From the IMG/VR virus record IMGVR_UViG_2609459769_000016: 16,654 bases of DNA, one strand, 5' to 3'. Within the stretch, counting starts at the first letter, position 1; every line of letters starts with the position of its first letter. The stretch comes from a virus. Taxonomy: Duplodnaviria > Heunggongvirae > Uroviricota > Caudoviricetes. Both the position numbers and the translations under genes were made by a program. Of this stretch, positions 774-16,654 are shown one piece after another. The notes beneath the pieces were generated by a model that worked only from the letters and a program-made list of their open reading frames with translations, searched no databases and was not told the DNA's origin.

Positions 774-1526
774 TCAGATTCCCTGGTGAGTAAGAATTTT
801 ACTTTCTGAACTCCTCTGAGAGTATTGACTTGGAGAAACACCAAAATAACGTCTAAATACATAAGTAAAGTATGAGACACTGGCATAACCACAGACCTTA
901 GCTACTTTACTAATAGGATAACAACGAGTGCTGAGTAAATATTCAGCCATTTGCATCCTCTCATCAAGTATGATCTTACTGAATGATACCCCCTCTTCTT
1001 TCAATTTCATCTTTAGTAAACTTTCGCTGAGATATAATCTTGATGATATATCCTTAAGACGCCATGGTGCAGATAAATCCGTATGAATAATCGTTTTAAC
1101 TTTAGCCCCTGTGCTTTTCAAACATCCAAACAGAAATACTCCAAATTGTTTTTCAGAAGAAAATGCAGAGAGACATGTAAAAGCAATAGACTCATCAAAA
1201 ATTTCTATGTATTCAGCACAGTGATTAGCCCAACTAATTAATCCTTTAATTAAACTGAAGTCAGCAAAGTTTATTTTTAAATAAGATGGATATTCCCTAC
1301 AATCAGAAATATCCCTTAAGTTATTAGCTTTCAAATAGCGACTAATAAACTCAGCGCCAAAATCCGCCACTATCACTCTTTCAGGATATGTCAGGAAAAA
1401 ATCTCTAGAGCTAGAGTCGACAAGTACAGATGAACCTCTCTCCAGAAACACACTCTCTTTTCCGAAATAAACATCAAAGGACTCCAAAATCAATATAACT
1501 GAACATGTAGTTGCCATATCATCCAC
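774..1526 (-). CDS. AraC/XylS-family transcriptional regulator, AppY/EnvY-like
   Basis: 250-aa ORF with a C-terminal AraC-type HTH (…ISKVAKVCGYASVSYFTYVFRRYFGVSPSQY…). The C-terminal half resembles AppY from memory; the N-terminal domain is divergent. It occupies the position appY holds relative to tail-fibre assembly genes in DLP12. Confidence 0.7.
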   Translation of the reverse strand: MDDMATTCSVILILESFDVYFGKESVFLERGSSVLVDSSSRDFFLTYPERVIVADFGAEFISRYLKANNLRDISDCREYPSYLKINFADFSLIKGLISWANHCAEYIEIFDESIAFTCLSAFSSEKQFGVFLFGCLKSTGAKVKTIIHTDLSAPWRLKDISSRLYLSESLLKMKLKEEGVSFSKIILDERMQMAEYLLSTRCYPISKVAKVCGYASVSYFTYVFRRYFGVSPSQYSQRSSESKILTHQGI

Positions 1527-1766
1527 CCAATTTAACTGAAACCAGGATGAAGTATATGCATATAAAGTTCACTTTGCCAAACTTCAGTATAAAAAACCAC
1601 ATAAAAAATAGGGTGTGATAAAAAATACCGTAACAATAAAGCAAAGGATTATAAAATCCGTTACAGTTACAAATGATACTCAAGAAACAATTCCTTAGGA
1701 AAAACTTATTTACAGCCAATAAGAGTAATGACTCGAACTTATTGATAGTGTTTTATGTTCAGATAA

Positions 1767-2961
<1,195 letters not shown>

Positions 2962-3269
2962 CTAAGAAAATTCCGATCTATTGTTAGGGTCATCAAAGTT
3001 ACTTAACAGTATTCCGAAATGAAAATACAAAGCAAGCTAATTGTCTTATTAAACATTATTATTGCATTTATATTATTTGAGCTTTTAGCTCAAAAATTTG
3101 GTTTGAGTACATTATTTTAAAGCAAGATAAACAATATCGGGCACTCTAGTTTTTATAATTAACAATTAAACGTCCATGAAATGTTATTTACTTTTCTTCG
3201 CTATTGTCATATCTTAATATAGTGGCTTACGCCACTCTACTTTCATCACATTTTGTACGTTTATGTACT

Positions 3270-3305
3270 CGCCATGAAGCTCTTTCATGGCGATTTTTTA
3301 TTCTT
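3270..3305 (+). terminator. Rho-independent terminator-like hairpin on the plus strand in the AT-rich island
   Basis: 9-bp perfect stem CGCCATGAA (3270-3278) and TTCATGGCG (3284-3292) with a 5-nt loop, followed by ATTTTTTATTCTT. Confidence 0.45.
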
Positions 3306-3385
3306 AATCCAAGAACATACTCCCTACCTATAGCAAAATCACTTTTTTAACAAAAGAATAACGTATTTAGGTAATCATTACGAAT

Positions 3386-3967
3386 TTACCCTATAGGTGC
3401 TACTGGCCATTCAATATCCGGTGCAGTTAATGTATCAACACGGTTCAGCAACACCAGATACTTTTTCCAGGCTTCCAGCAACAAGGTTTCTTCCTCCGTT
3501 GCGATTTCCAGATCTACAGCATCCTGAAGTGGCGCAATATGCTCACTGGCTACCTGCATCAGGCTGTTTTTTGTTTCTTCTGCCTCCCGGATCCGGAACA
3601 GTTTTTCTGCTTCCGTATCCTTCACCCAGGCTGTGCCGTTCCACTTCTGATATTCCCCTCCCGGCGACAACCAGGTAACATTTTCCGGTAACGGACCGAG
3701 TTCAGAAATAAATAACGCGTCGCCGGAAGCCACGTCATAAACCGTTTTACCCCGATGGTCTTCAACGAGATGCCACGATGCCTCATCACTGTTGAAAACA
3801 GCCACGAAGCCTGCCGGAATATCTGGTGGTGCAATATCGGTACTGTTTGCTGGCAGACCTGTATGAGGCGGAATATATGCGTCACCTTCACCAATAAATT
3901 CATTAGTTCCGGCCAGCAGATTATAAATTTTTATGGTCCGTGCTTGTTCACTCATTCTGAATGCCAT
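3386..3967 (-). CDS. tfa: tail fibre assembly protein Tfa, lambda-type
   Basis: 193-aa [57 protein letters not shown]... matches lambda Tfa almost throughout. Its ATG overlaps the stf stop (TAATG). Confidence 0.9.
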
Positions 3968-6900
3968 TATGCAAGCCTCACAATATAGTTAAATGCGATG
4001 TTTTTGACGGTGTTTTCCGCGTTACCCGCAGCGTTAACGGTGATGGTGTGTCCATGTGAGCCAATCGCAACGGAGTGCGTATGAGCACCAATACCGACAG
4101 TATGTGCATGTGCGCCTGCGATTGCAGCAGTGCCGGACAGCGAGTGGGTATGAGCACCATCTGATGATGTCTTCCCTGCATTACGAGTCTGGCCACTACC
4201 GCTTGTTGTGCTCATAATCCCCGCGCTTGGATTTGAAATCGCGGTATAACCATTAGGGAAAATGCTCGTGTTCGTGCCACCAAATGCACCGGAACTCTTG
4301 TGTTGGTGCGCGCCGGCACTATTTGCGGTCCCGCTAATACTATGGGTATGCGCCCCGGTGTTATTCGTGGATTTGGTTCCGTAATCAAACGACGATGTGG
4401 TTTTCGTCCCCAAATCCGTACTGGATGCGCTGGCGCTGTGGGTGTGCGATTTAATGCCGTCCTGTTCCTGAGACAATACGGCGCGACCACTGGCAGGTTT
4501 GCCCTTAATCGTCCAGCCACGCATATCAGGGATCACGCCTGACGGATAAGCGGCTGCAAGTTTCGGGTATGCAGATTTGTCAAAAGTCTGCCCCTGCATC
4601 AGGGCATAACCAGACGGAACGGTATCTGATGGCCACGGGATTGGTGCGCCGACTGGGTAGCTTTCTGGTGGAAGATTTTTCGAGGTATAAACTTCTGCCC
4701 AGTCTTCCTCAAAACCATAGCCATCTCTTGAGGAACGGTAGAACAGACCTCCATTTCTGTAATGTGCCTTCATCTGCAGGGTCCGGCAACTTCCGACTCC
4801 GGTATAGAAGTTAACCAGAATATAGCTGTCGCCAGAGCGGGTGACATTGTAAGCGCCTGATTCGGCATTCCATGGAACGCCCCCATCCGCATCGGCATAT
4901 GTATCCGTTGCCCTTCTGGCAAAAGCAGCCACATGCGCGGCGGTTAAAGTAATATCTTTGGAACCATCAAACTCAACACCAGAAACCAGTCTTGGCGTTT
5001 GCAGCTTTGTTGCTGTTAATGCATTACCATTCAGACTTGCGGACAGTTTGGTTCCAATAATCAGTTCGCCGGTTGCGTTATCAATAGCAAACGGTCTTAA
5101 TGTATTCCAGCCACCATAAACATCACCTTGATTGGTAAGCAGCAGGTAAGTTTTAGCGCCATCATTACGCCATAATGCACCATACTCCCCACCTATCATT
5201 CGAATCTGATTACCACCACGCGCTACAATTTCGTCTGTGGCAAAAAGTTTTTTGCACGACAAGTTATCGTTAACGATTAACGAATGAGACTCATAAAAAC
5301 CACGCCCACTCTTAAAATCAAGGATAACGTCCGCCGCGATACATTCAGTCGCCGGATTTGTTGCCCCAAACTTATAGGTCGTATCATTAACAACGAGATC
5401 AGCACCAGGTGCGGATATTGACAGGCCATCTTCGATAAACGCAAAAACAGGGAAAGCAGCGCCATCAACATAGAACACAGAGCGCAAATCATCGCCCTTA
5501 TTACTCATCATTATTGAGTGGATGGCTCGTTCATTGTTTTGATATTGCCAGAACATTCCATAAGCATAACGCCCCCTGTCAGTCCAGCCACCAGGCATAA
5601 CAAATCCGTTAAACTCGCAGTTATTCATCGGATCGCCTGCGGTTCGCGTTGCCGTGGTGATAATGACCCTTGATGCCAGTTCGCTTACTGAGCCAGCAGA
5701 ACGCATAACAACAACAGGGTAATATTTTCCAGATGTTGCACCTGCAGGAGCGTTAACCCGCACATAACGCATACCACGCTTATCAGCAAAGTCTGTTTTA
5801 CTGACCGCGTTAATGTTGTTCAGGAAGCGTCCCTTATCGGGTATATCAGCGCCGTTCTGGTCTTTCTGCAGACGTTTCTCTGCATTGTCATAGGCTGATT
5901 TTACTGCCTTTGGCGTTGCCGCCAGCGTTTCAGACGTACTGTTGGTCGCACTGCTGAGCTGTACTACCCCCTTTTTCGTCGTGCTCGCATCCTCAAGCGC
6001 CACGGCGGATGCAATATCCTCTGCCCGTTTTGCCGCTGTCTCGGCGCGCGTTGCCGCGGATTCCGCCGTACTTTTGCTCTGTGCTGCCGCTGCCGCACTG
6101 CCAGCTGCCTCTGTCGCCTTCGTGGATGCTGTCGTGGCGCTGCCCTTCGCTGCTGACGCCTGTCTGGTCGCCTCATCTTTTGAAGCAGACGCCGATGATG
6201 CCGATGACGCCGCCGAACTGGCTGACGATGCGGCAGCCGTTTTTGAGGATTCTGCGCTGGTTTCCGACGCTTTCGCGTTCGTTTCGGATGTCTTCGCTGC
6301 GGAAGCAGACCTCGCTGCTGCGCTGGCCTGTTCAGTGGCTTCGCCAGCCTTCGTTGTGGCTGTTGAAGCAGACGATGCGGCACTTTCTGCCGACTTTCCG
6401 GCAGCGGTGGCACTGGCTGAGGCCTGCCCGGCACTTGTTGACGCGGCGCTGGCAGACGACGCAGCCGCTGTTTTTGAGCCTGCCGCAGCTGAGGCACTCT
6501 GTCCCGCTGCCGTTTCAGAAGACTTAGCGTTCGTCTCGGACGTTTTGGCCGCCTTCGCAGAATTTGCTGTCGCCGTTGCCGAGGAAGCTGCGCTGCTGGC
6601 GCTCGAGGCTGCGCTCGTTTCTGATGATTTTGCCGCCTCTTTTGAAGCTGACGCATCCCGGGCTGAGGTGGCAGCTTCTGACGCTTTCGTGGTCGCGGTG
6701 GATGCAGAAGTGGCTGCTGATTGTTGTGACGCTGCCGCATTCGTTTCTGACGTTTTCGCCGCAGCGGCACTGGTGGCCGCCGCGCTTTTTGAGGACTCTG
6801 CAGCGGCAGCACTTTTTTCCGCTTCAGTGGCCTTTGTTGATGCCGTTCCTGCGCTGGAAGACGCTGACTGAGCCGACGACGCGGCCTGTCCGGCTGACGT

Positions 6901-7368
6901 GCTGGCTGCGCGTGCTGAGCCTGCAGCATCAGTCGCATGGGTTGCCGCCTCACGGGCTGATGTGCCGGCATCGCTGGCTGACTTCTTCGCGGCTGCCGTG
7001 TTCTGTGCCACCGCGGACGCGTTACGCGCCACCTCTTCCACCATCAGTTCAAAACGGCGCAGAGCCTCAGGACGGGCATCATCCTCTGTCATGGCACCGA
7101 GAAAATCATTCAGCGTACCGGGTTGAGAATCTTCATACACGGTAATGGTCCCGGCATGTGATGGCGGGAATCCCTCCACCAACAGACTGACGCTGTACTG
7201 ACCATACTCGACGTCCATTGTGTAACGCCCGGCTTCATCCGGGTTTTCTGAGGCCACTGTGTTCACCACCACCGTGGTGCTGTTGCGCCTGGCCTTTAGC
7301 TGAATGGTGCAGTTTTGTATCGGCTTACCTGCGCCATCTTTCAGTACACCTGAAATCCGTACTGCCAT
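3967..7368 (-). CDS. stf: side tail fibre protein Stf (lambda orf401/orf314-type, StfR-like, 1133 aa)
   Basis: N-terminus [49 protein letters not shown]... and C-terminus ...[63 protein letters not shown] match lambda Stf; the central part is a long Ala/Ser/Thr-rich repeat region. SD GGGGGGAA lies upstream of the ATG at 7366-7368. Confidence 0.9.
6020..7030 (-). repeat. Ala/Ser/Thr-rich low-complexity tandem-repeat coding tract inside stf
   Basis: Protein residues about 113-450 consist of reiterated units such as [11 protein letters not shown].. and [10 protein letters not shown]. The GCN-rich periodic DNA leaves long stop-free frames on both strands (track ORFs 5942-6871 +, 5964-6971 -, 6009-6527 +, 6564-7145 +). 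Confidence 0.7.
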
Positions 7369-7377
7369 ATTCCCCCC

Positions 7378-7406
7378 ACAAAAAAGCCCGCCTGAACCGG
7401 CGGGCT
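7378..7406 (-). terminator. Rho-independent terminator downstream of ybcW, directly upstream of the stf ribosome-binding site
   Basis: 8-bp perfect stem AGCCCGCC (7385-7392) and GGCGGGCT (7399-7406) with loop TGAACC. On the minus strand it is followed by UUUUUGU and then the stf SD and ATG. Confidence 0.5.
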
Positions 7407-7429
7407 GTCATAACACTGTGTTATGGTGA

Positions 7430-7636
7430 TCAGTCAACCACCAGGGAATAATCCTTCATATTATTATCGTGCTTCACCAACGCTGCCTCAATTGCTCTGA
7501 ATGCTTCCAGAGACACCTTATGTTCTATACATGCAATTACAACATCAGGGTAACTCATAGAAATGGTGCTATTAAGCATATTTTTTACACGAATCAGATC
7601 CACGGAGGGATCATCAGCAGATTGTTCTTTATTCAT
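7430..7636 (-). CDS. ybcW: YbcW-like small prophage protein (68 aa), function unknown
   Basis: Translation [68 protein letters not shown] matches DLP12 YbcW as recalled. Position and orientation fit the DLP12 gene order. Confidence 0.75.
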
Positions 7637-7879
7637 TTTGTCGCTCCATGCGCTTGCTCTTCATCTAGCGGTTAAAATATTACTTCAAATCTTTCTGTAT
7701 GAAGATTTGAGCACGTTGGCCTTACATACATCTGTCGGTTGTATTTCCCTCCAGAATGCCAGCAGGACCGCACTTTGTTACGCAACCAATACTATTAAGT
7801 GAAAACATTCCTAATATTTGACATAAATCATCAACAAAACACAAAGAGGTCAGACCAGATTGAAACGATAAAAACGATA

Positions 7880-8332
7880 ATGCAAACTACGCGCCCTCGT
7901 ATCACATGGAAGGTTTTACCAATGGCTCAGGTTGCCATTTTTAAAGAAATATTCGATCAAGTGCGAAAAGATTTAAACTGTGAATTGTTTTATTCTGAAC
8001 TAAAACGTCACAACGTCTCACATTATATTTACTATCTAGCCACAGATAATATTCACATCGTGTTAGAAAACGATAACACCGTGTTAATAAAAGGACTTAA
8101 AAAGGTTGTAAATGTTAAATTCTCAAGAAACACGCATCTTATAGAAACGTCCTATGATAGGTTGAAATCAAGAGAAATCACATTTCAGCAATACAGGGAA
8201 AATCTTGCTAAAGCAGGAGTTTTCCGATGGGTTACAAATATCCATGAACATAAAAGATATTACTATACCTTTGATAATTCATTACTATTTACTGAGAGCA
8301 TTCAGAACACTACACAAATCTTTCCACGCTAA
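7880..8332 (+). CDS. ybcV: YbcV-like DUF1398 prophage protein, function unknown
   Basis: [36 protein letters not shown]... (150 aa from ATG 7880). The track extends to a GTG at 7799; the true start is uncertain because neither start has a strong SD. Confidence 0.7.
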
Positions 8333-8622
8333 ATCATAACGTCCGGTTTCTTCCGTGTCAGCACCGGGGCGTTGGCATAATGCAATACGTGTACGCGCTA
8401 AACCCTGTGTGCATCGTTTTTAATTATTCCCGGACACTCCCGCAGAGAAGTTCCCCGTCAGGGCTGTGGACATAGTTAATCCGGGAATACAATGACGATT
8501 CATCGCACCTGACATACATTAATAAATATTAACAATATGAAATTTCAACTCATTGTTTAGGGTTTGTTTAATTTTCTACACATACGATTCTGCGAACTTC
8601 AAAAAGCATCGGGAATAACACC

Positions 8623-8916
8623 ATGAAAAAAATGCTACTCGCTACTGCGCTGGCCCTGCTTATTACAGGATGTGCTCAACAGACGTTTACTGTTCAAAAC
8701 AAACCGGCAGCAGTAGCACCAAAGGAAACCATCACCCATCATTTCTTCGTTTCTGGAATTGGGCAGAAGAAAACTGTCGATGCAGCCAAAATTTGTGGCG
8801 GCGCAGAAAATGTTGTTAAAACAGAAACCCAGCAAACATTCGTAAATGGATTGCTCGGTTTTATTACTTTAGGCATTTATACTCCGCTGGAAGCGCGTGT
8901 GTATTGCTCACAATAA
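8623..8916 (+). CDS. bor: Bor lipoprotein (serum-resistance lipoprotein family)
   Basis: 97-aa ORF MKKMLLATALALLITGCAQQTFTVQNKPAAV... with lipoprotein signal and lipobox LITGC. It is convergent with the lysis genes, as bor is in lambda and DLP12. Confidence 0.9.
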   Translation: MKKMLLATALALLITGCAQQTFTVQNKPAAVAPKETITHHFFVSGIGQKKTVDAAKICGGAENVVKTETQQTFVNGLLGFITLGIYTPLEARVYCSQ

Positions 8917-8947
8917 TTGCATGAGTTGCCCATCGATATGGGCAACT

Positions 8948-9409
8948 CTATCTGCACTGCTCATTAATATACTTCTGGGTTCCTTCCAGTTGTTTTTGCA
9001 TAGTGATCAGCCTCTCTCTGAGGGTGAAATAATCCCGTTCAGCGGTGTCTGCCAGTCGGGGGGAGGCTGCATTATCCACGCCGGAGGCGGTGGTGGCTTC
9101 ACGCACTGACTGACAGACTGCTTTGATGTGCAACCGACGACGACCAGCGGCAACATCATCACGCAGAGCATCATTTTCAGCTTTAGCATCAGCTAACTCC
9201 TTCGTGTATTTTGCATCGAGCGCAGCAACATCACGCTGACGCATCTGCATGTCAGTAATTGCCGCGTTCGCCAGCTTCAGTTCTCTGGCATTTTTGTCGC
9301 GCTGGGCTTTGTAGGTAATGGCGTTATCACGGTAATGATTAACAGCCCATGACAGGTAGACGATGATGCAGATAACCAGAGCGGAGATAATCGCGGTTAC
9401 TCTGTTCAT
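8948..9409 (-). CDS. rzpD: Rz-type inner-membrane spanin (i-spanin)
   Basis: Translation [55 protein letters not shown]... with an N-terminal TM segment and coiled-coil body. Its ATG overlaps the rrrD stop (ATGA at 9406-9409). Confidence 0.85.
9007..9189 (-). CDS. rzoD: Rz1-type outer-membrane spanin lipoprotein, embedded in rzpD in another frame
   Basis: 60-aa [63 protein letters not shown] with lipobox VVGC and a proline-rich body. It lies entirely inside the Rz reading frame. Confidence 0.8.
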
Positions 9410-9903
9410 TGCTGACCCCACAAACAGATTTCACGCTCAATCTCACGACGAGTCATGAGACCTTTCCATTGCTTACCGCCAGCATATGTCCAGCGACGTA
9501 GCTGATCACATGCGCCTTTGATATCGCCCTGGTTTATTTTGCGAAGAAGCGTCGATGTTCTGAAATTGCCAGCACCCACGTTGTAAACGAATGAGTAAAG
9601 AGCGCCGCGCGTTGTTTCCGGTATATCGACTTTGATGTACGGGTTAATTTGTCTGGCGACAGTGGCAAGGTCTTTATTCAAGAGTGCTTTGCATTCTGCT
9701 TTGGTATACGTTTTACCGAGCATGATGTCTTTTCCGGTGTGTCCGTGACATACAGTCCATACGCCAACGATATCTTTGTATGGTACGTAGCTGACACCTT
9801 CCAGACCATCGTTACCACTTGGGCCAGTAATTAACACTGATGCTATAGCAATTGCTCCGCCACCAATAGCAGCAGCAACGGCTTTTCGTAATGATGGAGG
9901 CAT
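9406..9903 (-). CDS. rrrD: SAR endolysin (phage-21 R-type lysozyme)
   Basis: 165-aa ORF with a Gly/Ala-rich N-terminal signal-anchor-release segment ([23 protein letters not shown]) followed by a lysozyme domain. It matches DLP12 RrrD as recalled. Confidence 0.9.
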
Positions 9904-10118
9904 TATTCACCTCTCGCAGCCTTGCGCTTATCTTCTTTAATCTTGAAATAAAGGTTTGTCAGGTACGTCAGCAGGCCAAATACCAGGCTACCCAGCACAC
10001 CTATTGCTGCCCACTGTGAGGGCGTGACTTTATCGAGCAGCTGTAAAAACCAGTAACCGGCACTACCTGCTGAGGTGCCATAGGCGACACCCGTTGTTAA
10101 CTTATCCATGGATTTCAT
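9903..10118 (-). CDS. essD: class II pinholin (phage-21 S-type), dual-start motif
   Basis: 71-aa [74 protein letters not shown] with two TM segments, Met1 and Met4, and SD GAGGTGGGG upstream. The track's longer 86-aa version starts at an upstream ATG with no support. Confidence 0.85.
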
Positions 10119-10239
10119 AACCCCACCTCGCAGACAAAGCGGGTGTAAATTGAGGGAATACAACGTATCGCAAAAAAGCAGAAACGTAACAGACTCGGAG
10201 TCAGTGAATAACTCAGGTATTGGGTTATCAGCTAATATC

Positions 10240-10279
10240 GAGACTCAAAAAATGGAAAAACCCGCTCGACGGCGGGTTT
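10240..10279 (-). terminator. Intrinsic terminator on the minus strand upstream of essD; candidate tR'-like terminator of the late leader
   Basis: 8-bp stem AAACCCGC (10258-10265) and GCGGGTTT (10272-10279) with a 6-nt loop. On the minus strand it is followed by UUUUUCCAUUUUUUG (window 10243-10257). Confidence 0.4.
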
Positions 10280-10705
10280 AAGCTGTGTGACGAAGTAACC
10301 ACTCTTAACAGCATAACCAATTTTTTACGTACGTAAACCACTAAATGATATTTGCGAGAATGCTACCGAGTATTGAAAACACCACTACAAATACATAAGC
10401 AAATCTCAACAAATAACCAACAAATAATTTCCAGCGTTATTTTTAGCTGGTTTAAATTGAATCTTCAAATTATAGAGCACTTATAAATAACAGCCATTAA
10501 TATAAATTGGCTAATAGATTTATTTTTATTCAGCCAAGAGCCATGAATAGGATTCGATAGAAAAAGTTCAGATAAAAATAGAGATCTACTTCACAAATCA
10601 AATGAGAAACCAAAACTTACATCTTGAAATAATCACATTGATTAGATGAATATTTATCGCGCAGTGACATCATTTTTTAATAATAGTTCAAAAAAAGGGC
10701 TCACG

Positions 10706-11788
10706 ATGAAAAAATTAACAGTGGCAATTTCTGCTGTAGCTGCATCAGTACTGATGGCGATGTCTGCTCAGGCAGCTGAAATTTATAATAAAGACAGTAA
10801 CAAGCTGGATCTGTACGGGAAAGTTAATGCTAAGCACTACTTCTCCTCTAATGATGCAGATGATGGTGATACTACTTATGCCCGTCTTGGCTTCAAAGGT
10901 GAAACCCAAATCAACGATCAACTGACTGGTTTCGGTCAGTGGGAATATGAATTCAAAGGCAACCGCGCTGAATCTCAAGGTTCCTCCAAAGATAAAACCC
11001 GTCTTGCCTTCGCTGGCCTGAAATTCGGTGACTACGGCTCCATCGATTATGGCCGTAACTACGGTGTAGCATACGATATTGGTGCATGGACCGACGTTCT
11101 GCCAGAATTCGGTGGCGATACCTGGACCCAAACAGATGTATTCATGACTGGTCGCACCACAGGTGTTGCAACTTATCGTAACAATGACTTCTTTGGTCTG
11201 GTTGATGGTCTGAACTTTGCTGCTCAGTATCAGGGTAAAAATGACCGCACTGACGTAACTGAAGCTAATGGTGATGGTTTCGGTTTCTCCACTACTTATG
11301 AGTATGAAGGATTCGGTGTAGGTGCAACCTATGCTAAATCTGACCGCACTAATAATCAGGTTATCTACGGTAACAACAGCCTGAATGCATCTGGTCAAAA
11401 TGCTGAAGTATGGGCAGCTGGTCTGAAATATGATGCGAACAACATCTATCTGGCTACCACCTATTCTGAAACCCAGAACATGACTGTTTTTGGTAATAAC
11501 CATATTGCCAACAAAGCACAAAACTTCGAAGTAGTTGCACAATATCAGTTCGACTTCGGTCTGCGTCCGTCCGTTGCTTACCTGCAATCTAAAGGAAAAG
11601 ACTTGGGTGCGTGGGGTGATCAGGACCTGGTTGAATATATTGATGTAGGTGCAACCTATTACTTCAACAAAAATATGTCCACTTTTGTTGATTACAAAAT
11701 CAACCTGATTGATAAGAGCGATTTCACGAAAGCATCTGGCGTTGCTACCGATGATATCGTTGCTGTAGGTATGGTTTACCAGTTCTAA
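10706..11788 (+). CDS. nmpC: outer-membrane general porin, NmpC/OmpC family, apparently intact
   Basis: [42 protein letters not shown]...VGMVYQF with signal peptide, porin beta-barrel repeats and terminal aromatic residue. It sits between quuD and essD as nmpC does in DLP12; the ATG at 10706 has an AAGGG SD. Confidence 0.9.
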
Positions 11789-11924
11789 TTTGATTACTAA
11801 AAGATATGTTGCGGGAGGCTTTGCCTCCCCAACATATAAGTGGCTCCCTCAAGCCACTTCCTTTAGGAGCACAACCTTGCTTCTAACTATATAAACCTTC
11901 TGTTATATATTACCCTTTATTTTT

Positions 11925-11959
11925 GGGGGCGTCTCAACGCCCCATTTTTAATAATTTTT
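11925..11959 (+). terminator. Rho-independent terminator downstream of nmpC
   Basis: Stem GGGGCG (11926-11931) and CGCCCC (11938-11943) with loop TCTCAA, followed by ATTTTTAATAATTTTT. Confidence 0.5.
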
Positions 11960-11976
11960 AGTAAACAATTGGCATA

Positions 11977-12360
11977 TTAATTAGAGTTATTAACAACGAT
12001 ATCCATCTCTAACCGGATATCTAATGCCATTAACATCCCTTCAATTATACCCTCAGCCTTCTGTAACCTTTTCCCGATATAACCATCAGAGCAGCAATGC
12101 TTACCTGCCAGTGACATGAATGTCATACCGACTACATAATAATCTACTAATAAATCGTGCAAATCGCTGTTGTTCTTTTTCAGACGGGCCATGCACCCGC
12201 AAATGATCATCGCGTCATCGTCACAACATTGCGGGCGAGATTTTACTTTTGAAGTAATTAATCCCTTAAAACCGGCGGCAATGGACGACCAGGTCACATC
12301 TTCATGATTATTAGCCGCCCACGCTCCCCAACGCTCAAGAACCATCTGAATATCACGCAT
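11977..12360 (-). CDS. quuD: late-gene antiterminator Q homologue
   Basis: 127-aa [63 protein letters not shown]... matches DLP12 QuuD as recalled. The track starts 5 codons upstream. Confidence 0.85.
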
Positions 12361-12445
12361 CAACTTACTCCACAAAAATCAGACCAGAACGCCAATTACA
12401 AGCAAAAATCAATAAAACAGTATTAGTTGATTGTTATCTCTGACT

Positions 12446-12586
12446 TCATACTCCTGCTCCTGTCAGGGTTTTGGCGTAATTCCTCAGTATTCGGTAATCG
12501 GTCAAAACAGAACTGGGGAAACGATATAAGCGCAGGCGCATCCAGCGGTGGCGAAGAAGTTCTGCCATATTAAACTCAAACATCAT
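12446..12586 (-). CDS. ylcG: YlcG-like small protein (46 aa)
   Basis: Hand-translated minus-strand [49 protein letters not shown]. Its ATG overlaps the rusA stop (ATGA), and the position between rusA and quuD matches ylcG in DLP12. It is below the ORF-track size cutoff. Confidence 0.5.
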
Positions 12587-12945
12587 TCATTCCCCATTTC
12601 GGTGATGGTCAGTTCCAGCCTCCCACCTTTGGTAACAGGCATCTTCACAACGCGGTAATCAACGACCTGAGCATCATCCAGCCAGAAACCTGCTTTAGTG
12701 AGTGCGTCAAAAGCGGCTTTTTGCAGATTATCCAGGTCACGGCGACGGCGATCCGGCATGTGGCACTCAATGCGGATTTTCACAGGGATAGCCAGGCCGA
12801 TATCCAGCATTGCGTTTTTAATGATTCTGGCGACGTTATCGCGGTATGCCTGCCCCTCTGCGCTGACGTGCGTGCGCCCGCGATTATGGCGGTAATAGCG
12901 ATTATTGCTCGGAGGCCAGGGTAATGTGATGCTGTAGGTATTCAC
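12583..12945 (-). CDS. rusA: RusA Holliday-junction resolvase
   Basis: 120-aa [123 protein letters not shown]. It uses a GTG start that overlaps the upstream ORF stop (GTGA). Confidence 0.9.
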
Positions 12946-13280
12946 GCCTTAATAATCCCCTCTTTCAGCCACATAACCTGTGTTTTCGCCATACCTTCCA
13001 GCGCGCATTCTTTTGCATATGCAGCATCGACTTGCTTGGCATGCCCTTTATAGCCGGTCTGATACACCTCGGTATTCGATATGCAGATGTTGAGGTCATG
13101 AGAATTGCTGGAGATGCCCAGCTTTCTACCCCATGCACTGACAGCATCATAAACAGCATTGCAACAGGCATTCGCATCAAAGGAGAGTGATATGAGCAGG
13201 AATACGGGTTTGTAAAAGATAACGCTTGTGAAAATGCTGAATTTCGCGTCGTCTTCACAGCGATGCCAGAGTCTGTAGTG
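12942..13280 (-). pseudogene. ybcO-like (DUF1364) 3' fragment with no start codon; mosaic or 5'-truncated ORF at the deletion junction
   Basis: The frame coupled to rusA is open for 112 codons (…[79 protein letters not shown]). The last 29 residues resemble the YbcO C-terminus; the rest does not, and there is no ATG/GTG/TTG before residue 72. The track's ORF 12965-13258 is a different frame. Confidence 0.5.
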
Positions 13281-13392
13281 TCAGATGATGACCGTACTCA
13301 AACATCGGGTTGAGTATTATTTTACTGTTTCTTTACATAAACATTGCTGATACCGTTTAGCTGAAACGACATACATTGCAAGGAGTTTATAA

Positions 13393-13674
13393 ATGAGTAT
13401 CAATGAGTTAGAGTCTGAGCAAAAAGATTGGGCGTTATCAATGTTGTGCAGATCCGGTGTCTTGTCTCCATGCAGACATCACGAAGGTATTTATGTAGAT
13501 GAAGGTATAGATATAAAGTCGGCATACAAATATTCCATGAAGGTTTATAAGTCTAATGAAGACAAATCCCCATTCTGCAATGTGCGAGAAATGACTGATA
13601 CCGTGCAAAATTATTATCACGAGTACGGTGGAAACGATACTTGCCCTCTCTGTACAAAACATATAGATGATTAA
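13393..13674 (+). CDS. ea8.5: lambda Ea8.5-like protein
   Basis: 93-aa ORF MSINELESEQKDWALSMLCRSGVLSPCRHHEGIYVDEGIDIKSAYKYSMKVYKSNEDKSPFCNVREMTDTVQNYYHEYGGNDTCPLCTKHIDD. SD AGGAG lies upstream, and spacing to xis is as in lambda. Confidence 0.85.
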   Translation: MSINELESEQKDWALSMLCRSGVLSPCRHHEGIYVDEGIDIKSAYKYSMKVYKSNEDKSPFCNVREMTDTVQNYYHEYGGNDTCPLCTKHIDD

Positions 13675-13691
13675 ACCCAATATTACATAAC

Positions 13692-13720
13692 AATCCTCGC
13701 ACTCGCGGGGATTTTTTTTA
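13692..13720 (+). terminator. terminator-like hairpin with U-tract downstream of ea8.5
   Basis: Stem AATCCTCGC and GCGGGGATT (one G-U pair) with loop ACTC, followed by TTTTTTTTA. Confidence 0.4.
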
Positions 13721-13762
13721 TCTGAACTCACTACGGCGAGTTTTGTTTTATGGAGATGATAA

Positions 13763-13930
13763 ATGCACTTCCGAGTCACAGGAGAATGGAATGGAGAGCC
13801 ATTCAACAGAGTTATCGAAGCCGAGAACATCAGCGACTGCTATGACCACTGGATGCTGTGGGCGCAGATAGCACATGCAGACGTAACCAATATTCGAATT
13901 GAAGAACTGAAAGAACACCAAGCCGCCTGA
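13763..13930 (+). CDS. small ORF between ea8.5 and xis (lambda orf55-like, 55 aa)
   Basis: ORF MHFRVTGEWNGEPFNRVIEAENISDCYDHWMLWAQIAHADVTNIRIEELKEHQAA with SD GGAG 7 nt upstream. Lambda carries a hypothetical ORF at this position (from memory). Confidence 0.5.
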   Translation: MHFRVTGEWNGEPFNRVIEAENISDCYDHWMLWAQIAHADVTNIRIEELKEHQAA

Positions 13931-13969
13931 TGGCGGTTTTTTCTTGCGTGTAATTGCGGAGACTTTGCG

Positions 13970-14188
13970 ATGTACTTGACACTTCAGGAGTGGAACGCAC
14001 GCCAGCGACGCCCAAGAAGCCTTGAAACAGTTCGTCGATGGGTACGCGAGTGCAGGATATTCCCTCCTCCGGTTAAGGATGGAAGAGAGTATCTGTTCCA
14101 CGAATCAGCGGTAAAGGTTGACTTAAATCGACCAGTAACAGGTAGCCTTTTGAAGAGGATCAGAAATGGGAAGAAGGCGAAGTCATGA
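13970..14188 (+). CDS. xis: excisionase Xis (lambda)
   Basis: 72-aa ORF MYLTLQEWNARQRRPRSLETVRRWVRECRIFPPPVKDGREYLFHESAVKVDLNRPVTGSLLKRIRNGKKAKS matches lambda Xis as recalled. It overlaps the int start by 23 nt. Confidence 0.95.
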   Translation: MYLTLQEWNARQRRPRSLETVRRWVRECRIFPPPVKDGREYLFHESAVKVDLNRPVTGSLLKRIRNGKKAKS

Positions 14189-15236
14189 GCGCCGGGATTT
14201 ACCCCCTAACCTTTATATAAGAAACAATGGATATTACTGCTACAGGGACCCAAGGACGGGTAAAGAGTTTGGATTAGGCAGAGACAGGCGAATCGCAATC
14301 ACTGAAGCCATACAGGCCAACATTGAGTTATTTTCAGGACACAAACACAAGCCTCTGACAGCGAGAATCAACAGTGATAATTCCGTTACGTTACATTCAT
14401 GGCTTGATCGCTACGAAAAAATCCTGGCCAGCAGAGGAATCAAGCAGAAGACACTCATAAATTACATGAGCAAAATTAAAGCAATAAGGAGGGGGCTGCC
14501 TGATGCTCCACTTGAAGACATCACCACAAAAGAAATTGCGGCAATGCTCAATGGATACATAGACGAGGGCAAGGCGGCGTCAGCCAAGTTAATCAGATCA
14601 ACACTGAGCGATGCATTCCGAGAGGCAATAGCTGAAGGCCATATAACAACAAACCCTGTCGCTGCCACTCGCGCAGCAAAATCAGAGGTAAGGAGATCAA
14701 GACTTACGGCTGACGAATACCTGAAAATTTATCAAGCAGCAGAATCATCACCATGTTGGCTCAGACTTGCAATGGAACTGGCTGTTGTTACCGGGCAACG
14801 AGTTGGTGATTTATGCGAAATGAAGTGGTCTGATATCGTAGATGGATATCTTTATGTCGAGCAAAGCAAAACAGGCGTAAAAATTGCCATCCCAACAACA
14901 TTGCATGTTGATGCTCTCGGGATATCAATGAAGGAAACACTTGATAAATGCAAAGAGATTCTTGGCGGAGAAACCATAATTGCATCTACTCGTCGTGAAC
15001 CGCTTTCATCCGGCACAGTATCAAGGTATTTTATGCGCGCACGAAAAGCATCAGGTCTTTCCTTCGAAGGGGATCCGCCTACCTTTCACGAGTTGCGCAG
15101 TTTGTCTGCAAGACTCTATGAGAAGCAGATAAGCGATAAGTTTGCTCAACATCTTCTCGGGCATAAGTCGGACACCATGGCATCACAGTATCGTGATGAC
15201 AGAGGCAGGGAGTGGGACAAAATTGAAATCAAATAA
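14166..15236 (+). CDS. int: site-specific tyrosine integrase Int (lambda)
   Basis: 356-aa ORF MGRRRSHERRDLPPNLYIRNNGYYCYRDPRTGKEFGLGRDRRIAITEAIQ...HLLGHKSDTMASQYRDDRGREWDKIEIK matches lambda Int as recalled, including the catalytic region and terminal Tyr motif. Confidence 0.95.
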   Translation: MGRRRSHERRDLPPNLYIRNNGYYCYRDPRTGKEFGLGRDRRIAITEAIQANIELFSGHKHKPLTARINSDNSVTLHSWLDRYEKILASRGIKQKTLINYMSKIKAIRRGLPDAPLEDITTKEIAAMLNGYIDEGKAASAKLIRSTLSDAFREAIAEGHITTNPVAATRAAKSEVRRSRLTADEYLKIYQAAESSPCWLRLAMELAVVTGQRVGDLCEMKWSDIVDGYLYVEQSKTGVKIAIPTTLHVDALGISMKETLDKCKEILGGETIIASTRREPLSSGTVSRYFMRARKASGLSFEGDPPTFHELRSLSARLYEKQISDKFAQHLLGHKSDTMASQYRDDRGREWDKIEIK

Positions 15237-15330
15237 TGATTTTATTTTGACTGATAGTGACCTGTTCGTTGCAACAAATTGATAAGCAATGCTTTTTTAT
15301 AATGCCAACTTAGTATAAAAAAGCAGGCTT
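15231..15330. other. attL (hybrid attachment site: lambda P' arm, 15-bp common core, bacterial arm)
   Basis: Core TTAGTATAAAAAAGC at 15310-15324 is the reverse complement of GCTTTTTTATACTAA, followed by AGGC (bacterial side). Phage-side AAATAATGATTTTATTTTGACTGATAGTGACCTG at 15231-15264 is the reverse complement of the lambda P' arm with Int arm-type sites, overlapping the int stop. Confidence 0.85.
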
Positions 15331-15370: not shown

Positions 15371-16654
15371 GTGAACACATTTTCAGTTTCCCGTCTGGCG
15401 CTGGCATTGGCTTTTGGCGTGACGCTGACCGCCTGTAGCTCAACCCCGCCCGATCAACGTCCTTCTGATCAAACCGCGCCTGGTACCTCTTCTCGCCCGA
15501 TTCTGTCGGCAAAAGAAGCGCAGAATTTCGATGCTCAACACTATTTTGCATCCCTGACACCAGGTGCTGCAGCGTGGAATCCTTCCCCGATTACCCTGCC
15601 TGCGCAACCTGACTTTGTTGTCGGCCCGGCGGGCACTCAAGGTGTAACGCATACCACGATTCAGGCGGCGGTAGATGCGGCAATTATCAAGCGTACCAAC
15701 AAGCGCCAGTATATTGCCGTGATGCCTGGTGAGTATCAGGGAACGGTATATGTCCCTGCCGCTCCGGGTGGAATTACTCTGTACGGTACAGGTGAAAAAC
15801 CGATTGATGTGAAGATTGGGCTTTCCCTTGATGGTGGCATGAGCCCTGCCGACTGGCGTCACGACGTCAACCCGCGCGGCAAATATATGCCAGGTAAACC
15901 AGCGTGGTATATGTACGATAGCTGCCAGAGCAAACGCAGCGACAGTATCGGTGTTCTCTGCTCTGCGGTCTTCTGGTCACAAAACAATGGCCTGCAACTG
16001 CAAAATCTGACCATCGAAAACACGCTGGGCGATAGCGTAGATGCAGGTAACCATCCGGCGGTGGCACTGCGTACTGATGGTGACCAGGTACAGATTAACA
16101 ACGTTAACATTCTCGGTCGTCAGAACACCTTCTTTGTCACCAACAGCGGTGTGCAGAACCGTCTGGAAACAAATCGTCAGCCGCGTACGCTGGTGACCAA
16201 CAGCTACATTGAAGGGGATGTGGATATCGTTTCTGGTCGCGGCGCAGTGGTGTTCGATAACACCGAATTCCGCGTGGTGAACTCACGTACTCAGCAAGAA
16301 GCGTATGTGTTTGCACCGGCTACGCTGTCCAACATTTACTACGGTTTCCTCGCCGTAAACAGCCGTTTCAATGCTTTCGGTGATGGTGTGGCGCAACTGG
16401 GCCGCTCGCTGGATGTTGATGCCAATACCAACGGTCAGGTGGTGATCCGTGATAGCGCCATCAACGAAGGTTTTAACACGGCTAAACCGTGGGCCGATGC
16501 GGTGATCTCTAATCGTCCGTTTGCGGGTAATACCGGCAGCGTAGATGATAACGACGAAATACAGCGCAATCTGAATGACACTAACTACAACCGCATGTGG
16601 GAATACAATAACCGCGGCGTGGGTAGTAAAGTGGTTGCAGAGGCGAAGAAGTAA
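15371..16654 (+). CDS. ybhC: YbhC outer-membrane lipoprotein (pectinesterase-fold acyl-CoA thioesterase family), host gene flanking att-lambda
   Basis: 427-aa ORF from a GTG start with SD GGAG; lipoprotein signal MNTFSVSRLALALAFGVTLTAC. ybhC is the chromosomal gene on the gal side of attB-lambda. The stop is at the window end. Confidence 0.9.
   Translation: MNTFSVSRLALALAFGVTLTACSSTPPDQRPSDQTAPGTSSRPILSAKEAQNFDAQHYFASLTPGAAAWNPSPITLPAQPDFVVGPAGTQGVTHTTIQAAVDAAIIKRTNKRQYIAVMPGEYQGTVYVPAAPGGITLYGTGEKPIDVKIGLSLDGGMSPADWRHDVNPRGKYMPGKPAWYMYDSCQSKRSDSIGVLCSAVFWSQNNGLQLQNLTIENTLGDSVDAGNHPAVALRTDGDQVQINNVNILGRQNTFFVTNSGVQNRLETNRQPRTLVTNSYIEGDVDIVSGRGAVVFDNTEFRVVNSRTQQEAYVFAPATLSNIYYGFLAVNSRFNAFGDGVAQLGRSLDVDANTNGQVVIRDSAINEGFNTAKPWADAVISNRPFAGNTGSVDDNDEIQRNLNDTNYNRMWEYNNRGVGSKVVAEAKK

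Follow-up and report, generated by a model that had tools for sequence, protein, structure and literature searches.

A cryptic lambdoid prophage at the λ attachment site of Escherichia coli and its very probable descent from a phage of the mEp332/ev099 type

Introduction

Among the closest described relatives of the element considered here is DLP12, the cryptic prophage at the argU locus of Escherichia coli K-12. DLP12 and bacteriophage λ share a previously known block of homology at Rz-bor-ybcV-ybcW (PMC3945230), and λ acquires DLP12 DNA by recombination across exactly this block, with the DLP12 genes R, Rz and nu1 being functional in λ (PMC3945230). The lysis operon of DLP12 has also been linked to vesiculation (PMC7918800). 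The element itself is found in IMG/VR virus record IMGVR_UViG_2609459769_000016, a stretch of 16,654 nucleotides (nt) which is called the window below and to whose positions all coordinates refer unless another sequence is named. The DNA is chromosomal, from the λ attachment site (attλ) of E. coli, and the element is a cryptic (“grounded”) lambdoid prophage inserted there between ybhB and ybhC, which very probably corresponds to a parental phage of the mEp332/ev099 type minus two deletions and with damage by insertion sequences (IS). A cryptic prophage at this site is ordinary, real yet unsurprising, and belongs with DLP12, Rac and Qin. RefSeq genomes already contain the sequence in annotated form.

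The gene order rusA-ylcG-quuD-nmpC-essD-rrrD-rzpD/rzoD-bor-ybcV-ybcW is common to DLP12 and the window at 95–99% nt identity, and the proteins QuuD, EssD and YbcW are 100% identical between the two. Both have lost the immunity, replication and head-tail genes while keeping Q and the lysis genes, bor, a tfa gene and an AraC-family regulator near the far end, and both carry IS elements. They differ in that DLP12 has intD and resides at argU, whereas the window has λ int and attλ at ybhC. Furthermore, the porin gene of K-12 is disrupted by IS5, whereas that of the window is intact and a different allele (88% nt identity to K-12 nmpC, 96.8% to the ev099 porin gene). DLP12 has tfa fragments only, in contrast to the complete stf of the window, but it has kept nohD and ylcI, which are both deleted in the window, and the deletion endpoints are not the same. 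The viable phage PhiR26_1 (PV340555) looks like an undeleted relative of DLP12, with a DLP12-type integrase and a ybcN-ybcO-rusA-ylcG-Q-porin-lysis-bor-ybcV-ybcW arrangement. Its morphogenesis genes are of the λ type and complete, and stf-tfa, ybcY, a PD-lambda-1 defence gene and, at the far end, an omptin gene are present as well.

The remaining reference phages are λ (J02459), ev099 (NC_049953, Radostvirus) and mEp332 (PV340541), a viable phage propagated on MG1655 whose record is written from att. mEp332 contains int-xis, a full early region, rusA-ylcG-Q-porin-holin-RrrD-Rz, λ-type head and tail genes, lom, stf-tfa, an AraC-like regulator and the same transposase remnants as the window. When the literature was searched for the paper from which mEp332 and the PhiR phages come, the search returned solely a quantitative PCR paper that mentions mEp332. 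λ resembles the window in its att core and P′ arm, which are identical, and in Int, Xis, Ea8.5, Rz and Bor, which are near-identical. Its Q, S and R genes, on the other hand, are of an unrelated type and it lacks a porin gene, while the window has a longer, mosaic stf and a different b-region and is missing two thirds of the genome.

Origin of the prophage

The original prediction, made from the sequence alone, described three blocks of different ancestry fused directly to each other. Alignment with intact phages instead places the mosaicism in the parent and leaves deletion as the local event. In prophage order, window positions 15325-13693, 13050-8566, 7423-2962 and 1723-1 correspond monotonically to positions 1-1633, 14095-18575, 38921-43381 and 44257-45979 of mEp332, and this collinearity is interrupted only by two large gaps and a patch of IS DNA. 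All retained blocks are collinear with mEp332 at 99.1%, 97.1%, 94.4% and 98.7% identity and likewise with ev099 at 99.2%, 97.6%, 95.9% and 99.0%, and both phages have the same attP and int as well as the same b-region with its AraC regulator and transposase remnants. Unlike the window, they keep the roughly 32 kb that are missing here and are free of IS1 and IS5, and where the window has the bor/ybcV/ybcW and ea8.5 versions of λ itself, theirs belong to other types. As the same blocks occur in the same order in mEp332 and ev099, the apparent three ancestries reflect the mosaic structure that is normal for a single type of phage. The expectation that the interval would not align with any one intact phage thus failed in part, given mEp332, whereas the expected lack of repressor, replication and morphogenesis genes held.

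The parent would have been a λ-like temperate phage which was already mosaic, combining the int-xis-att region of λ, a rusA-ylcG-Q(QuuD)-porin block with S21/R21-type lysis genes, and the Rz-bor-ybcV-ybcW-cos right end of λ itself. It would also have had a long mosaic side tail fibre and a b-region with an AraC regulator. After integration, two illegitimate deletions at 2–4 bp of microhomology are proposed to have removed about 12 kb (ea22 to nin) and about 20 kb (cos and nu1 to lom), and IS1 and IS5 would later have eroded the b-region.

The two deletion junctions could be placed precisely by alignment at 7420-7423 and 13049-13050; the block boundaries given earlier had overlapped. Junction A (7420-7423), mapped by three-way alignments with λ and PhiR26_1, joins the equivalent of λ position 47954, just past ybcW, to that of 19595 in the lom-stf spacer, with the four bases GTTA as microhomology. 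About 20.1 kb are lost here, comprising cos, nu1 through J, and lom. Junction B (13049-13050) was mapped by aligning the window with mEp332 and 52F4; with the two bases TA as microhomology, it connects the nin region and the C-terminal end of an ea22-like gene, and the loss of about 12 kb takes in the remainder of ea22, exo-bet-gam-kil-cIII-N, the immunity region with cI and cro, O, P, ori, ren and most of nin. An open reading frame (ORF) of 97 amino acids (aa) at 12965-13258 on the minus strand spans junction B; it was treated as spurious, being out of frame with the ybcO-like segment found there and having no Pfam, PHROG or PADLOC match.

The absence of cI, cro, N, O, P, terminase, capsid and tail-shaft genes, as previously predicted, is borne out by tblastx of the window (E<=1e-4), in which neither λ 1-19594 (nu1 to lom) nor λ 29871-45965 (ea22, exo, N, cI, cro, O, P, nin, Q, S and R) gave a match, nor did the equivalent segments of mEp332 and PhiR26_1, while a positive-control segment gave 196 matches. 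Judged by its gene content, the remnant cannot replicate, package or build particles, since the required genes and sites are absent. The description of a heavily deleted lambdoid prophage at attλ, unable to form particles, is supported, with an exact att core and no homology to the essential modules.

Population data are in line with recent deletion. A joint of λ int, attL and ybhC is present in 1,920 of 5,426 complete E. coli genomes (about 35%), and both junctions of the window occur together in two of the 5,426, JKHS016 and AST198, which, if the IS patch is left aside, differ from the window by a single base in 13.7 kb. Less-deleted remnants at attλ are found in 52F4, NCTC9104 and PEC1009, each with its own endpoints inside the gaps of the window: 52F4 has the junctions exo′//nin and A′//J′, and NCTC9104 and PEC1009 have a bet′//ren′ junction together with A′//stf′ or nohD//lom′. 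The PEC1009-type junction is present in 19 of the genomes and the 52F4-type in one. 52F4 has one mismatch to the window in 5631 bp and two in 3606 bp, and its gaps lie wholly within those of the window. This nesting combined with near-identity implies that the window either was eroded further a very short time ago or stems from a larger deletion that happened independently in the same prophage lineage.

These three remnants and that of E. coli B strain REL606 have the locus and the Int/Xis proteins in common with the window and have likewise lost immunity, replication and morphogenesis; the Int accession is identical in JKHS016, 52F4 and REL606. The possibility that the window is the known attλ remnant of E. 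coli B was nevertheless rejected. Int and Xis of REL606 share their WP accessions with JKHS016, but its defective prophage (12953-24745 of the REL606 locus) is a different one, with an unrelated interior that contains a terminase small subunit, an Acb1-family fragment and acyltransferases and has no Q-lysis-side-tail-fibre block.

Four points weigh against this account. An exact (>99.9%) undeleted parent across all blocks was not found among phages and prophages, the best single phages reaching 94–99% per block. The right arm of 52F4 differs from the window, with an stf that is 98.3% identical and a b-region consisting of the ea47-ea59 genes of λ itself, which means that recombinational exchange has also occurred in this prophage family and that its history is not one of pure deletion. 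The attR site is seen in the relative JKHS016 and lies outside the window itself. Finally, the statements on expression made below are inferences, and a pR′ promoter downstream of quuD was sought by consensus scan and by eye and none was convincing.

Alternative origins

An origin in which pieces of three prophages (λ, a DLP12/21-like one and a λ-like donor of tail fibre genes) recombined in the chromosome into a new chimera is very improbable. It is true that block identities vary with the reference, with int-xis 98% identical to λ, quuD-essD 98–100% to DLP12 and stf 86% to λ, and the otherwise near-identical 52F4 has another stf/b-region arm than the window, so some exchange is real. Yet viable mEp332 and ev099 have the identical combination and order of blocks, and these phages already have the joints at which ancestries meet, namely R/Rz at 9409/9410 and the ybcO-like stub at 12946-13050. 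Only the two microhomology junctions are unique to the element, and the collinearity with mEp332 largely refutes a chimeric origin.

Selection for the Q-lysis-side-tail-fibre set, together with the porin, bor and the regulator, as a domesticated module would be another way to explain what was retained. Possible functions include envelope turnover or vesiculation as in DLP12, altruistic lysis, or the provision of Stf and Tfa in trans to helper phages. None of the retained ORFs is disrupted, deletion A places the lysis genes and stf-tfa in one co-directional unit downstream of quuD, and a similar pattern of retention is seen in DLP12, for whose lysis operon host phenotypes have been reported (PMC7918800). 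The deletions, however, are extremely recent, as a less-deleted relative shows 1–3 mismatches in about 9 kb and JKHS016 one in 13.7 kb, and the configuration exists in only two of the 5,426 genomes. At a divergence of about 2 per 10,000 sites from the less-deleted relatives no inactivating mutations are expected yet, and the intact ORFs are therefore uninformative on selection. Relatives have moreover already lost part of stf (NCTC9104), ybcV by IS1 (NCTC9104) or the AraC gene (JKHS016), and the E. coli B remnant is without the block. Domestication of the retained set is unlikely, and its maintenance by selection as a module can be given very little credence.

The probability that the element is a phage satellite similar to the phage-inducible chromosomal islands (PICIs), keeping int-xis and dependent on a helper phage for particles, is practically nil: int-xis is present and structural genes are absent, but the reading is refuted by the lack of a replication or primase module, of cos or pac (cos lies inside deletion A) and of capsid-redirecting genes, every segment is collinear with ordinary lambdoid phage DNA at 94–100% identity, and PADLOC, Pfam, PHROGs and tblastx of the window revealed no satellite-like features.

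Expression and significance

The original prediction that genes for integration and excision, Q, lysis, tail fibres and cargo were kept is correct in that all of these are intact ORFs. Going by what is known of lambdoid phages, the porin, bor and the AraC regulator are morons with their own promoters or signals and may be expressed. The rusA-quuD, lysis and stf-tfa genes would be largely silent, as pL, pR, N and cII are gone and neither int/xis nor rusA-quuD has a known strong promoter; a consensus promoter scan upstream of rusA gave none on the strand concerned. Two hairpins downstream of quuD were taken to be terminators that belong to the convergent porin gene. As a result of deletion A, essD-rrrD-rzpD/rzoD-ybcW-stf-tfa are co-directional on one strand, and a Q protein of the same specificity provided in trans by another phage could drive this unit from essD to tfa. 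Int and Xis together with the intact attL might still excise the element at low frequency.

It has to be considered whether the fusion of the start of a late operon (pR′-essD-rrrD-rzpD/rzoD-ybcW) to its end (stf-tfa) turned the element into a selected, Q-dependent donor of tail fibres which is activated in trans by a co-resident or superinfecting phage of the QuuD type. This is very improbable. If true, the 1133-aa Stf and its chaperone would be supplied to the helper phage, changing the host range of its progeny, and extra lysis functions would be provided as well.

A more modest role, and the best documented for remnants of this sort, is that of a recombination reservoir for incoming lambdoid phages, for which the element could offer about 15 kb of homology to λ-like phages. 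The intact extra porin, bor and AraC-family regulator may affect envelope phenotypes. Otherwise the significance of the locus goes little beyond correct annotation. It is another example of grounding, in which the immunity/replication and morphogenesis modules are lost before IS elements whittle down the rest, it contributes one more state to the series of nested deletions at attλ, and it illustrates that what looks like a mosaic fusion in a remnant can simply have come down from the parental phage.

Extent of the element and integration module

The gene map was derived from Pfam, PHROGs and the RefSeq annotation of the near-identical JKHS016. Every named ORF is open and of full length, and the retained ORFs are 94–100% identical to λ or DLP12 proteins. 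Scans of the window gave no defence system by PADLOC and no tRNA, and the Rfam scan gave no structured RNA except an IS009 match inside tfa.

The 15-bp att core of λ (GCTTTTTTATACTAA) is present without mismatch at 15310-15324 and forms the joint between prophage and chromosome beside ybhC. The chromosomal flank begins at 15325, with ybhC at 15371-16654. The attL site (15237-15324, minus strand) includes 88 bp between int and the core that are identical to the P′ arm of λ. It is followed by int (14166-15236, plus strand), which is intact and codes for a protein identical to λ Int in 353 of 356 aa (99.2%) with all catalytic residues retained (R212, K235, H308, R311, H333 and Y342), and by xis (13970-14188, plus strand), also intact and identical to λ Xis in 71 of 72 aa (98.6%). 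Further inwards on the plus strand lie orf55 (13763-13930), recognised from the RefSeq annotation of JKHS016, ea8.5 (13393-13674; Pfam Lambda_ea8_5, 97.8% aa identity to λ) and ea22′, a 141-bp C-terminal fragment of an ea22-like gene (13050-13190); phrog_676 has a match in the ea22′/ea8.5/orf55 stretch. From 13167 to 15324 the window is 98.3% identical at the nt level to λ 29870-27724 (att, int, xis, orf55 and ea8.5), which together with the Pfam matches of Int, Xis and Ea8.5 agrees with the λ-type attL/int/xis/orf55/ea8.5 block of the original prediction.

At the other end, the element had been thought to start at 3386, which is wrong. Positions 1-1723 and 2962-3385 are 97–99% identical to the b-region between tfa and attP of the viable phages ev099 and mEp332, which makes the element larger. 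The prophage covers the window from position 1 and extends about 240 bp further to the left, placing attR outside the window. In JKHS016 an attR core with one mismatch (2762-2776 of the JKHS016 locus) and a P arm of 86% identity with recognisable arm-type sites are found 225–239 bp to the left of window position 1, and in the nearest complete genomes ybhB-bioA is what lies directly on this left side. A second 15-mer resembling the att core (GGTTTTTTATACTGA; 1584-1598, minus strand, two mismatches) has the same orientation as attL. It was rejected as attR because it lies within b-region DNA that is 99% identical to viable phages, and the resemblance is probably due to chance.

The rusA-Q-porin-lysis-bor block

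The segment 7420-13031 matches K-12 DLP12 with conserved gene order at 95–98% nt identity. The DLP12-type block proposed for this region holds for the gene order and for the 9410-13031 side, whereas 7420-9409 (ybcW, ybcV, bor and rzpD) is nearer to λ than to DLP12, being 99.7% identical to λ 47954-45966. The right-end segment of λ contains ybcW (7430-7636, minus strand), whose protein is 100% identical to that of DLP12, and ybcV (7922-8332, plus strand; Pfam DUF1398), and 7430-8332 as a whole has 99.8% nt identity to λ and 98.8% to DLP12. Next come the intact lipoprotein moron gene bor (8623-8916, plus strand; Pfam Lambda_Bor, 100% aa identity to λ Bor) and, on the minus strand, an intact rzpD (8948-9409), whose product is 96.1% identical to DLP12 RzpD and 98.7% to λ Rz, with the open frame of rzoD embedded in it (9007-9189).

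The lysis genes continue on the minus strand with rrrD (9406-9903), coding for an intact signal-anchor-release (SAR) endolysin with 98.8% aa identity to DLP12, and essD (9903-10118), an intact P21-type holin gene whose product is 100% identical to that of DLP12 (Pfam Phage_holin_2_1, “P21 holin S”). Pfam also has matches to Rz and phage lysozyme here, and comparison of RrrD with the P21/DLP12 lysozyme structures PDB 4zpu and 3hde gives E about 1e-111. With an S21-family holin, an R21-like lysozyme and Rz with an embedded Rz1 frame, the cassette is of the phage 21 type. The Q gene, for which the same ancestry had been suggested, is merely a distant relative of Q21. The intact quuD (11977-12360, minus strand; Pfam Phage_antitermQ) codes for a protein with 100% aa identity to DLP12 QuuD, and the match of QuuD to Q21 (PDB 6p18/6jnx) is weak (E=7.6e-7, 32 bits, 80 aa).

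Between essD and quuD, an intact general porin gene of the nmpC/lc/OmpD type (10706-11788, plus strand; Pfam Porin_1, E=4e-153) is convergent with quuD and thus on the opposite strand within the late transcription unit. The PGAP (Prokaryotic Genome Annotation Pipeline) label “ompC: porin OmpC” in relatives is misleading for this prophage gene.

Beyond quuD are intact ylcG (12446-12586) and rusA (12583-12945; Pfam RusA, 99.2% aa identity to DLP12), both on the minus strand, and upstream of rusA a 105-bp ybcO-like or ninF-like segment (12946-13050, minus strand). The ybcO gene of DLP12 matches 86 of these 105 bp, and identity to mEp332 and ev099 is 96–97% throughout. Since the same stub is present in these viable phage genomes, the alignment identifies it as a natural mosaic joint of the phage and not as a deletion scar. 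Across 7420-13031 the window has 15 mismatches to PEC1009, and 12 of them are clustered at 12697-12985, in rusA and the ybcO-like stub. On sequence grounds, this cluster marks a recombination boundary between nin regions of the ninF type and of the ybcN-ninE-ybcO type.

Tail fibre genes, b-region and insertion sequences

The side tail fibre gene stf (3967-7368, minus strand; Pfam phage_tail_N, Gp34_trimer and Collar) is intact and free of stops. Its product of 1133 aa (774 aa in Ur-λ Stf) is a mosaic, with an N-terminal domain like that of λ, a long region rich in Ala and Ser, a trimerisation domain resembling that of gp34, a collar domain and a region of HxH repeats at the C-terminus, and no tandem repeats were found in the GC-rich Ala/Ser region of the gene. 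The intact tfa gene (3386-3967, minus strand; Pfam Caudo_TAP) codes for a tail fibre assembly chaperone of 193 aa with 93.8% identity to λ Tfa. A λ type had been assigned to both genes. This fits the N-terminal end of stf (86% nt identity over 960 bp) and tfa (94%), but not the divergent middle of the longer mosaic fibre, the closest counterparts of stf being those of ev099 and mEp332 (97%; 97.6% nt identity for ev099) and not that of λ. A full-length match to the Rfam family IS009 (RF02111) at 3426-3624 on the minus strand scores 225 bits against a gathering score of 117. It lies wholly inside tfa and probably reflects conservation of this gene rather than an independent RNA.

In the b-region, 1-1723 is 99.1–99.2% identical to ev099 26726-25004 and mEp332 45979-44257, which adjoin attP. 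The attR-proximal end of the prophage (1-732) contains remnants of an IS3-family transposase (Pfam rve/rve_3 in 367-732; RefSeq pseudogenes in JKHS016). An IS1 terminal-end stub of 43 bp (1724-1766, plus strand), which matches the IS1 end of JKHS016 (4044-4085 of the JKHS016 locus) at 100%, directly abuts an IS5 (1767-2961, minus strand) with an intact transposase of 338 aa and 99.4% identity to K-12 IS5B (Pfam DDE_Tnp_1/DUF772). The pair replaces 875 bp of b-region kept in PEC1009 and ev099, and the divergence of the flank from PEC1009 begins at 1723/1724. The IS5 has no matching 4-bp target-site duplication, its left flank being ATAA and its right flank CTAA. In JKHS016 and AST198 a complete IS1 has its left end against window position 1042, truncating the AraC gene, and its right end against DNA that is deleted from the window. 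The arrangement of IS1 and IS5 looks like the outcome of successive IS-mediated adjacent deletions, and the whole IS1 with different flanking deletions in the two closest genomes implies that IS-mediated erosion is ongoing.

The AraC-family transcriptional regulator carried as b-region cargo (774-1517, minus strand; Pfam HTH_AraC/HTH_18, phrog_1450) is intact and 247 aa long; at the aa level it is 98% identical to the regulator of ev099 but only 29% identical to AppY. Its position between tfa and the far att site is that of appY in DLP12.

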